Below, in pieces: positions 16,818 through 17,392 of a stretch of DNA of 64,000 nucleotides. This DNA comes from Escherichia phage S127 BCL3. Location of the stretch: sequence record OQ626344. The stretch is one strand, 5' to 3'. Both the position numbers and the translations under genes were made by a program. Within the stretch, counting starts at the first letter, position 1; each line of letters opens with the position of its first letter. Below the pieces are notes generated by a model that did not search any database, was not told the DNA's origin, and saw only the letters and a list, made by a program, of their open reading frames with translations.

Positions 16818-17021
16818 CAAAATTCTAAATGAGAACTTTTCGCATTTCATAAATTTAGTTAGCATGCTAATTACCTACCGTGACAATTCTATATAAAATA
16901 ATACCTCCTTAAATATTTCCATATACAAATTTTAAAAATCCATTTCCGAAAACGAAAAATCGATTTCGTCCCCAAAAATTTCAGGTCGAGCTCCGGAACG
17001 ATTTCCAGAAAATCTGATTCA

Positions 17022-17115
17022 GAAAACGAAAAACAGATCGAGTACTAAGAAATTTATCGAGAAAAATTTTCAGAAAATTCAATCTTTGAAACGAAAAACA
17101 GATCGAGTACTGAGA
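17022..17115. repeat. AT-rich tandem direct repeats (about 28-nt unit, 66-bp period)
   Basis: GAAAACGAAAAACAGATCGAGTACT(A/G)AGA at 17022 and 17087; degenerate copy near 16948. Confidence 0.6.
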
Positions 17116-17344
17116 GAGATGTATCAAAACCTACTGAGAATAATGGGCTTATTGTTATAAAAGGTCAAAGGTAAGCTGGGAAAGTTCTGGTAGAAGGGTG
17201 AGGGTATGTGCGGAAAATTTGGAATAGTAACTTAAAGTACGGTGCGAACGATAGAATGAGCAGCACATCTTATCGCGCCTGTCTTGAAAAATCCATTTTA
17301 GTTTTCGATCCATTTTCTGATTTTCTAAGAATTTTAAAATATCC

Positions 17345-17392
17345 GGCTAGGTAAAATATCAAAAGGAGGAAATCCATTTTAGAAATCCTCCT
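17345..17392 (-). terminator. rho-independent terminator ending the leftward replication-module transcripts
   Basis: 7-bp stem AGGAGGA/TCCTCCT, U-rich tract after it on minus strand; just downstream of gene 17423. Confidence 0.5.

Follow-up and report, generated by a model that had tools for sequence, protein, structure and literature searches.

A conserved non-coding locus with three long direct repeats in Escherichia phage S127 BCL3 and other rV5-like phages: a tentative candidate for a replication origin

The origins of the phages T7 and T4 combine a promoter with an AT-rich element: the primary origin of T7 has the promoters phi1.1A and phi1.1B plus an AT-rich region, and oriF and oriG of T4 have a promoter with a downstream unwinding element. 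In iteron origins, such as lambda ori, P1 oriR, pSC101 and P4 ori/crr, co-oriented direct repeats lie beside an AT-rich unwinding element. Here we describe a locus with traits of both kinds in a 64,000-nucleotide stretch of Escherichia phage S127 BCL3 (record OQ626344; this whole stretch is called the window, and positions are counted from its first letter). A sequence-only reading had pointed to AT-rich tandem repeats at 16940-17392 as a possible origin or control region. Judging from comparison with related phages, we hold with high confidence that these repeats form the iteron-like centre of a non-coding locus of about 0.9 kb (approximately 16555-17400) which is conserved and acts in cis. 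What we propose tentatively, as the reading that we place first, is that this cis-acting DNA element may be a transcription-activated iteron origin for a T7-like replisome.

The likeness to the T7 primary origin and to T4 oriF/oriG lies in tandem promoters directed into an easily melted AT-rich segment, with no open reading frame (ORF) behind them, and, for T7, also in the T7-type replisome which this phage appears to encode. Unlike in those systems, the promoters in the window are of the host sigma-70 type and not of the kind that depends on a phage RNA polymerase or on MotA, a GC-rich hairpin follows each of them, three long iteron-like units come after the AT-rich part, and a purine bias is not universal. 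With iteron origins the locus shares co-oriented direct repeats beside an AT-rich unwinding element, as well as a repeat sequence that diverges between lineages with number and layout kept; clustered GATC is a further likeness to P1 oriR and to oriC. Here, too, there are differences. Namely, the units measure 63-78 bp as opposed to 17-22 bp (P4 crr, with repeats of 120 bp, is nearest in scale), and the window locus is without DnaA boxes and does not lie in or beside a recognisable initiator gene.

The window can be placed in a myovirus of about 137 kb of the rV5/FV3 type, genus Vequintavirus, subfamily Vequintavirinae, because the best blastn matches of 15500-19000 among phage genomes (275 records) are the Escherichia phages B9-1, ECP26 and FV3, at 93-98% identity over the full length, and relatives of rV5 such as rV5_ev147 match this segment at approximately 91%. 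From about 6 kb to 43 kb every substantial ORF is on the minus strand, and the repeats sit in a gap of 1.2 kb (16208-17422) between a gene of 65 amino acids (aa; 16010-16207) and one of 109 aa, both on the minus strand and both assigned to PHROG families of unknown function.

The 25-mer on which the sequence-only reading was built, GAAAACGAAAAACAGATCGAGTACT, is indeed repeated: it is exact at 17022 and recurs with 2 mismatches at 17087, where the copy starts TGAAACG, and none of 100 dinucleotide shuffles of the window gave such a match. The similarity of the two copies spans 55 nt at 78% identity (16996-17050 and 17061-17115), with a start-to-start distance of 65 bp in place of the reported period of 66 bp. 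The degenerate copy that had been suspected near 16948 also holds, in that the 12-mer GAAAACGAAAAA is exact at 16948 and 47 nt match at 72% (16935-16981 against 17009-17055). Of the three sites given for the short motif AAATCCATTTTAG, two are exact, at 17289 and at 17370 (previously placed at 17369), but the one at 17307 is a partial copy only (GATCCATTTTCTG); a further copy with 2 mismatches lies at 16936. What had to be given up is the word tandem: Tandem Repeats Finder calls no head-to-tail array of period ~65, and the repeats are therefore better described as interspersed direct repeats than as a strict tandem array. The exclusion of an array of clustered regularly interspaced short palindromic repeats (CRISPR) stands, as there are three long degenerate units, the "spacers" are themselves conserved, and the Rfam scan returned nothing CRISPR-like.

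The repeats are best taken as three plus-strand units. Unit A (TTTTAAAAATCCATTTCCGAAAACGAAAAATCGATTTCGTCCCC, 16929-16973) is degenerate; unit B (AAAAATTT...GAAAATCTGATTCAGAAAACGAAAAACAGATCGAGTACTAAG, 16974-17050) has its core, GATCGAGTAC, at 17036; and unit C (AAATTT...GAAAATTCAATCTTTGAAACGAAAAACAGATCGAGTACTGAG, 17051-17115) has its core at 17101. With the core of unit A taken as ATCGAT at 16958, the core-to-core spacings in the window are 78 and 65 bp; a literal scan for TCGAG gives 52, 19 and 46 instead, since it takes in GGTCGAG at 16984, which is not conserved, as well as one more site, TATCGAG at 17057. The top strand of the repeat block is 43% A and 58% purine. To the right follow a variable spacer (17116-17285, no strand), with a mean pairwise identity of 0.70 and indels of 1-2 nt, and a conserved right block with short repeats (17286-17361, plus strand), which holds AAATCCATTTTAG at 17289, GATCCATTTTCTG at 17307 and AAAATATC twice (17334 and 17353). 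The locus is a single one: the unit core with its A-rich flank has no other copy in the 64 kb, and E. coli genomes and plasmids hold no copy of the unit, the one exception being a complete phage genome entered as a plasmid. Bacterial genomes (596 Gb) gave more than 120 single unit matches against about 69 expected, that is, within a factor of about 2 of chance. A host, plasmid or satellite origin of the units was rejected, the bacterial matches being at chance level and those in Enterobacterales lying inside a coding gene (EKQIEY).

How strongly is this stretch conserved? Within the genus we used an alignment of 15 genomes and mean pairwise identity by segment, with the spacer as a local neutral yardstick. 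The left part of the locus holds two predicted plus-strand promoters, P1 (TTGACA-17-CACAAT with an upstream TG, 16566-16594, found by promoter scan) and P2 (TTGCTT-16-TACTAT with a TGn extended -10, 16710-16737, read from the sequence), each followed by a plus-strand GC-rich hairpin element: element 1, presenting GGGAGACAACCACCGGGG, at 16601-16657, and element 2, GGGCA...GGGAGACAATCACCGGGG...TGCCC, at 16744-16795. P1, element 1, P2 and element 2 have identities of 0.93-0.97, the repeat block 0.91 overall and 0.93-0.98 over most of its length, and 17286-17345 reaches 0.96, to be compared with 0.70 for the spacer and with 0.89 and 0.95 for the two flanking genes. In other words, 16555-17115 and 17286-17345 are conserved as strongly as the flanking genes or more so. 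Since the spacer shows unconstrained drift in these very genomes, the neighbouring blocks must be under strong purifying selection at essentially every base. The repeats are also present in relatives, unit A being invariant in the 15 genomes and three units occurring across genera.

This constraint does not look like that of a coding sequence. In the 109-aa gene the identities at the three codon positions are 0.92/0.95/0.81, with the expected third-position excess of change, as against 0.945/0.926/0.938 in 16555-17115; the conserved blocks, unlike the flanking genes, have no 3-periodicity, and all three codon positions are invariant in them. The periods of the repeat units are not multiples of 3, and the sole ORF that spans units B and C (48 aa, minus strand) reads the copies in different frames, as QYSICFSFQ and STRSVFRFL. 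Both strands of the gap allow ORFs of 28-94 aa, and the calls in GenBank conflict in strand and position: minus-strand ORFs in rV5 (ORF198/199) and FV3 (FV3_00182/00183), a single plus-strand ORF of 48 aa in the records of LL12 and bov11CS3, and numerous tiny ORFs in that of NHEP1. Four records call none, and those of navn, V18 and Alma have no ORF between a 58-aa gene and the 109-aa gene. From the conflicting annotations, the lack of codon periodicity, the 1-2 nt indels in the spacer and the copies in two frames, we take the stretch to be non-coding; very probably, the ORFs that many records show across 16530-17420 are no genes.

By blastn the repeat stretch is alignable within the genus only (116 records); approximately 16762-16849, comprising part of a GC-rich element and a dyad, has 80-89% identity in Certrevirus, Seunavirus, Mydovirus, Serratia and Enterobacter phages and in phi92/phAPEC8-like phages, which belong to another subfamily, and it is the core of element 2 that is kept there. 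We therefore compared the homologous gaps of phiTE, CR8, GEC_vB_MG, VIK251, Kashira and anhysbys, and scanned IMG/VR with two conserved strings (numbers beginning with L are our labels). The same layout is found in at least 7 other lineages, namely Certrevirus, Seunavirus, Mydovirus, Serratia phage Kashira and three IMG/VR groups. In all Vequintavirinae-type lineages the gap is a gene-free island of 0.9-1.4 kb within a cluster of minus-strand genes, and its plus-strand parts come in the same order: promoter P1 and a GC-rich element; promoter P2 and a hairpin presenting GAGACAAnCACC; 2-5 dyads of the type AATGAGAATGATT(A/C)TCATT; in some genera a third, extended -10 promoter (P3) followed by ACCCCTAAAAAATTTTTTCG; exactly three co-oriented units, each made up of AAAAATTTTTTC, a spacer and (G)AAAAT.C..TT...GAAAA(A/C)C.GATCGAG(A/T)AC; less conserved, three TTTGAGATAA motifs in several genera; and, finally, the short repeats (ATCCATTT/AAATATC), as three motifs of CCATTT type and two or three of (C)AAATATC.

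The units themselves run from an A/T-tract through an A-rich middle to GATCGAG(A/T)AC, over 63-78 bp. Their core-to-core spacings are 63/78 in Certrevirus (phiTE, CR8, L026, L039), 67/75 in Seunavirus (GEC, L035), 67/74 in Mydovirus (VIK251 and five IMG/VR contigs), 65/67 in Kashira, 69/76 in L021 and 71/74 in L029, with a span from first to third core of 132-145 bp; three units are also present in one more lineage (L176, L177 and L184). L021 and L029 have a core changed to (C/T)CTCAAGTC, with the remainder of the unit kept, and Phapecoctavirus anhysbys has other AT-rich repeats at the position of the units. A core that changes between lineages within a layout that is kept is what one would expect if iterons co-evolve with their binding protein. 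The window Vequintavirus departs from its relatives in that a duplicate of the P2 type replaces their P1 element, the core of which has no copy in the 64 kb window, and in that the first unit is degenerate. Copy number, orientation and spacing are, in this sense, conserved, and the locus appears to have been kept since before the rV5-like phages and their relatives split into genera.

Does the repeat block act as DNA or as RNA? Its fold stability (ViennaRNA minimum free energy) equals that of dinucleotide shuffles, with z-scores of +1.07 for the plus strand and -0.14 for the minus strand, and Rfam gave no match at the gathering threshold or at E<=1-10 for the window and six distant homologous loci; on these two grounds a structured RNA in the repeat block was rejected. 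Palindromes within each unit (TCTGAtTCAGA and others), which by eye seemed to covary, were also discarded, their mean stem being 4.9 as against 4.5 in shuffles and their positions inconsistent. GATC is enriched 2- to 4.5-fold in the unit blocks, the core often holding CGATCG or GATC. With moderate confidence, we conclude that the repeat block probably works as duplex DNA, with a protein bound to it.

The duplex directly upstream of the units resembles a DNA unwinding element (DUE). Namely, in nearest-neighbour free energy over 40 bp, the AT-rich segment 16880-16940 (no strand) includes, at 16880-16920, the least stable 0.1% of 40-mers in the 64 kb; 17040-17060 is among the 0.5-2% least stable, and further minima at 16660, 17040 and 17320 alternate with the most stable stretches, the GC-rich elements. 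P1 and P2 are oriented towards this segment and opposite to all neighbouring genes, they are followed by no conserved ORF, and RNA started there would meet no plus-strand terminator before the units. We regard both as real promoters because their -35 and -10 hexamers are kept across genera while the spacers vary freely. The genes of the replisome are at 25-35 kb: a family A DNA polymerase (25379-28156; DNA_pol_A at 31.8 bits, below the Pfam curated cut-off of 34.3 bits), a DnaB-type primase-helicase (28215-30293; DnaB_C/AAA_25) and a PIF1 helicase (34094-35464; PIF1 match). The first two, by their domain matches, mark the replisome as T7-like.

The island is, moreover, set apart in transcription. 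At its right edge, a hairpin with the stem AAGGAGGA/TCCTCCTT (17363-17393, minus strand), the loop of which holds the third AAATCCATTTTAG and which is followed by a minus-strand U-tract, is the predicted intrinsic terminator of the incoming leftward operon. In relatives it carries a compensatory change from G:C to A:T, and a T-to-C change that leaves a G:U pair only in the minus-strand RNA; on this evidence it behaves as a terminator of minus-strand RNA. That it closes the replication operon, as had been suggested, is roughly right, but between the gap and the genes for polymerase and helicase there are some 20 small genes of unknown function. At the left limit of the non-coding locus, a sigma-70 promoter found by the promoter scan (TTGACA-16-TATTCT, 16260-16287, minus strand; P195A in the rV5 annotation) restarts leftward transcription for the 65-aa gene. 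Because the leftward operon stops at 17363-17393 and restarts at 16287-16260, the island would be transcriptionally insulated.

Taken together, three or more direct repeats that share one orientation and one place in the genome, as they do in the window and in at least 7 other lineages, with an adjacent AT-rich unwinding element, are what one looks for in an iteron origin, and promoters directed into an AT-rich region with no conserved ORF downstream, in a phage with a T7-type replisome, are what one looks for in a transcription-primed origin. In such an origin, the three units would be iterons, i.e. double-stranded sites for a phage-encoded protein; host RNA polymerase would start at P1 and P2 (and at P3 in some genera), against the neighbouring genes, would enter the least stable duplex at 16880-16940 and would cross the iterons; and the iteron-bound protein and transcription together would open the DNA, provide a primer for the T7-like replisome, or both. 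The locus could be the phage's origin or one of several. Protein binding, transcription from P1 and P2 and origin function are what we infer from this arrangement, and of the earlier proposal of an "origin or control region" it is the general part that stands (a functional, non-coding, cis-acting element under strong purifying selection, with its architecture kept), the case for an origin being circumstantial.

Several observations weigh against an origin at this place. Apart from the length of the units, which is far beyond the 17-22 bp of classical iterons, DnaA boxes (up to 1 mismatch) are not enriched, at 0.73/kb in the gaps of seven lineages against 0.5/kb window-wide; the window gap has none, and Kashira alone has a perfect one. 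No initiator gene is recognised next to the gap, the neighbours there being the small PHROG proteins of unknown function. A purine-rich top strand, which would favour R-loops, is seen in the window (fraction 0.60-0.67 over 16980-17280, 97th-99.8th percentile) and in Seunavirus and Mydovirus (0.56-0.59), but not in Kashira and Certrevirus (0.47-0.51). What is more, the top-strand GC skew at third codon positions (GC3 skew) falls at the gap from about +0.15 (8.9-17.7 kb) to about 0 (17.7-43 kb) among co-oriented minus-strand genes, and near 17700 the bulk GC skew steps from -0.03 to -0.17 and the AT skew from -0.18 to -0.02, with gene orientation no explanation. By the leading-strand rule of bacteria this step has the sign of a terminus, where forks converge, and not of a bidirectional origin, for which reason we do not use the GC3 skew as support. 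In the literature on the origins, transcriptomes and small RNAs of Vequintavirinae we found no replication, transcription or binding data, and no description of the locus.

There is, in addition, a second and larger ORF-poor region at about 3700-6650, rich in repeats and palindromes, which is a serious alternative or additional site for an origin. Strong promoters at its edges face inward (3713, plus strand; 6628, minus strand), it has perfect direct and inverted repeats of 18-20 nt (e.g. GCCATGCCATTCGTTTGCAT twice, and the pair 5285-5302 / 5419-5436), and it includes the lowest GC content of the window (0.36 at 5-6 kb). This region is the box marked "non-coding" at 104.0-106.6 kb of rV5 in the paper on that genome, where an origin was sought by skew analysis and not located (PMC3606486). 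An equation of that box with the repeat locus was rejected, the two being different regions. In rV5 the repeat locus corresponds to about 116.8-117.6 kb.

Between the promoters and the units lie dyads that resemble the binding site of the host regulator Fur. Dyad 1 (AAATGAGAACGGTTATCATTATC, 16662-16684) matches the 19-bp Fur consensus at 16/19 (at 16666), and dyads 2 and 3 (AAACGAGAATGATTATCATT and AAATGAGAACTTTTCGCATT) lie at 16798-16846, with dyad 2 at 15/19 (19-mer at 16802); none of them has a strand. The equivalent dyad in relatives, TGAGAATgATTATCA, matches the 7-1-7 motif at 13/14. These predicted sites are thus like the Fur box (GATAATGATAATCATTATC; 7-1-7 form TGATAATnATTATCA), unlike which they are not placed over a plus-strand -10/+1. 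Matches of at least 14/19 number 13 in the window against 3.1 expected, and matching to the Fur consensus is known to over-predict sites (PMC2189734). Dyads of the type AATGAGAATGATT(A/C)TCATT are found in the window at 16662-16684, 16798-16817 and 4724-4742, and an identical dyad occurs in unrelated viral contigs (L023, L024/L036/L038/L040/L053, L027, L034, L048). In two unrelated viral lineages it stands among clusters of DnaA boxes beside genes for Toprim/DnaB-type primase-helicases, an independent association with replication modules; elsewhere in such contigs it forms tandem arrays of 4-7 copies or lies in a 5' untranslated region. This distribution suggests a host-factor site that is widely reused by phages.

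Within an origin, the Fur-box-like dyads may couple firing to a host factor. One can go further and imagine a composite origin, in which host RNA polymerase starts transcripts at promoters that each bear the conserved GAGACAAnCACC hairpin, these transcripts serve to prime or melt an origin with three iterons, and Fur gates its firing through the tandem dyads; in this complete form we consider the idea improbable. If true, it would be a kind of origin not yet described, and the dyads among DnaA-box clusters in unrelated phages would mean that Fur-box-like sites are a widespread, unrecognised module of phage origins.

Among the other explanations, the one that fares best is that of a non-coding RNA locus, in which a plus-strand transcript from P1, P2 and P3 carries the three A-rich, unstructured units as binding modules and serves as a sponge or decoy for an RNA-binding protein or nuclease of host or phage. 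It would account for conserved plus-strand promoters that have no ORF behind them and no terminator before the units, for the sense-strand-like polarity of the purine-rich top strand at 16980-17280, and for a block that is, if anything, less folded than shuffles, as befits a single-stranded binding platform. It also has a precedent in repeat-RNA anti-defence in the same phage group, the pseudo-ToxI locus of phiTE, which is likewise a non-coding repeat locus in the same subfamily (Blower et al. 2012, PMC3475682). However, the phiTE units are of 36 nt and expand in copy number under selection (PMC3475682), unlike the units here, which are of 63-78 nt (34-45 nt are found in type III antitoxins) and always three. 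In phiTE itself the escape locus lies at 106.7 kb and the homologous gap at 39 kb (38.9-39.8 kb), so that an identity of the two loci was rejected. Anti-defence loci are, furthermore, usually variable, whereas this locus is part of the core and not of the accessory genome in genera that infect different hosts; Certrevirus and Kashira do not have the purine bias; the CGATCG palindrome and GATC in the core are typical of duplex-DNA recognition; and there is neither an Rfam family nor covariation. For these reasons we think an RNA function of this kind unlikely.

Less likely still, in our view, is a role in transcription control or as an insulator, where the units and short repeats would be operators for a phage regulator and the dyads sites for host Fur, and the whole would separate two leftward transcription units and time the change from early to middle expression. 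The terminator at the right edge and the promoter at the left one fit this well, as do several sigma-70 promoters and dyad-symmetric sites within 1 kb, and the promoter-plus-hairpin module does recur upstream of an ordinary gene (7395-7490). On the other hand, no other promoter in the 64 kb has a copy of the iteron core, operators would be oddly laid out as three sites over about 145 bp beyond the promoters, where there is no gene for them to act on, and about 0.9 kb of near-invariant DNA far exceeds the needs of an insulator.

A packaging (pac) site, with repeated motifs and A/T tracts to bind the small terminase and wrap it, in the manner of P1 or SPP1, is a still more doubtful proposition. 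The pac site of P1 contains hexamers that bear GATC, and known pac sites lie in or beside the gene for the small terminase. Likenesses to the P1 and SPP1 sites are the single-copy locus, the short co-oriented motif arrays, the A-tracts (here A5T6) and the 2- to 4.5-fold clustering of GATC; besides, the relative phiTE is a generalised transducer (PMC3475682), from which headful packaging follows. Unlike those sites, the window locus is far from the terminase genes: its neighbours are early and replication-side genes, the module for structure and terminase being tens of kb away (rV5 map, PMC3606486), and its conserved inward promoters and DUE-like segment would be left with no role. Finally, that the gap consists of small protein-coding genes (rV5 ORF198/199, FV3_00182/00183, the plus-strand 48-aa ORF of LL12), in which the repeats are incidental, is highly improbable: ORFs can be drawn and some are annotated, but the annotations contradict each other or are missing, and indels of 1-2 nt, invariant codon positions and a repeat read in two frames speak against it. 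The proteomics of rV5, which targeted virions, reported no peptides from the gap ORFs.

If the origin that we propose tentatively is indeed one, its unusual features would be the long units, the promoter-proximal hairpins and the Fur-box-like dyads, and it would offer a handle for phage engineering (origin plasmids, conditional replication) and for finding the initiator protein. As it stands, the locus is the first concrete candidate for a replication origin in rV5-like phages. These phages (Vequintavirinae) have a broad host range on E. coli, Salmonella and Klebsiella and are widely proposed for therapy and biocontrol. Whatever its function, what the databases give as contradictory "hypothetical proteins" becomes a defined non-coding element with named parts, common to the subfamily, and the annotation of 16530-17420 can be corrected in this sense.

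As for the hairpin elements, there are three paralogous modules in the window, each consisting of a sigma-70 promoter and a GC-rich hairpin of about 55 nt with GGGAGACAA(C/T)CACCGG: elements 1 and 2 on the plus strand, and 7395-7445 on the minus strand. The third copy, whose promoter is TTGTAA-16-TATACT at about 7480-7452, directly precedes another promoter and a gene and has the orientation of that gene. The module may give rise to a small RNA, or to an RNA that acts in cis close to the promoter; the elements have no Rfam match. A consensus fold of the P2 hairpin was set aside, RNAalifold on a MAFFT alignment giving 3 pairs only. Single-sequence folds are nested hairpins with z-scores of only -0.1 to -2.4, and we claim no covariation, because the outer stem AAUAAC/GUUAUU lies upstream of the likely start site in the window. 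In relatives (L016-L020, L015) the P1 promoter precedes a distinct, highly conserved GC-rich element, GCCACCCCACGGCGAAAAGGCGGGGCTAAC...GGTCGGAAGGTGGATCGCCGGTAG, also with no Rfam match. GC-rich GGCCCCGCCAGG elements lie in or next to promoter spacers at 16497-16527, 16574-16590 and 9178-9189. Near 16497 most relatives have an insertion of about 55-60 nt, GCCCACCAGGTTT...CCTACCTGGTCAG, itself an inverted repeat, which the window, FV3, Mangalyan, DrSchubert and slur16 lack; we see in it a small palindromic element that is prone to indels.

Other genera have, at the left end of the island, a small plus-strand gene with its own promoter and with no homologue in the window. In Phapecoctavirus, Kashira and phiTE it encodes 88-93 aa with the motif LGWQGGTVHQVA.ATGL (phrog_19316/33408; L015 1375-1641, L020 1328-1594 and L016 ~1300-1584, all plus strand), and in Seunavirus and Mydovirus a DUF7170 protein (L018 ~1397-1579 and L019 1373-1558, plus strand). 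As a DNA-binding candidate the left-edge protein was rejected: the helix-turn-helix was guessed by eye, the winged-helix hints in Pfam are sub-threshold, and the window has no homologue. The 58-aa gene of relatives (FV3_00181, navn_156; M[KE]GN.IPLENVAIN...) is broken in the window at 16291-16470 (minus strand), where a 10-bp deletion takes the start codon and a 1-nt deletion leaves the next ATG out of frame (MIPLEM*). Lastly, two points concern the database records themselves. CP057073.1 (137,565 bp), filed as an E. coli plasmid, is a complete rV5-like phage genome, and some 16 GenBank records of "Campylobacter phage" (MG0656xx) have approximately 83-90% identity to E. coli rV5-like phages across the locus, which makes their host labels doubtful.

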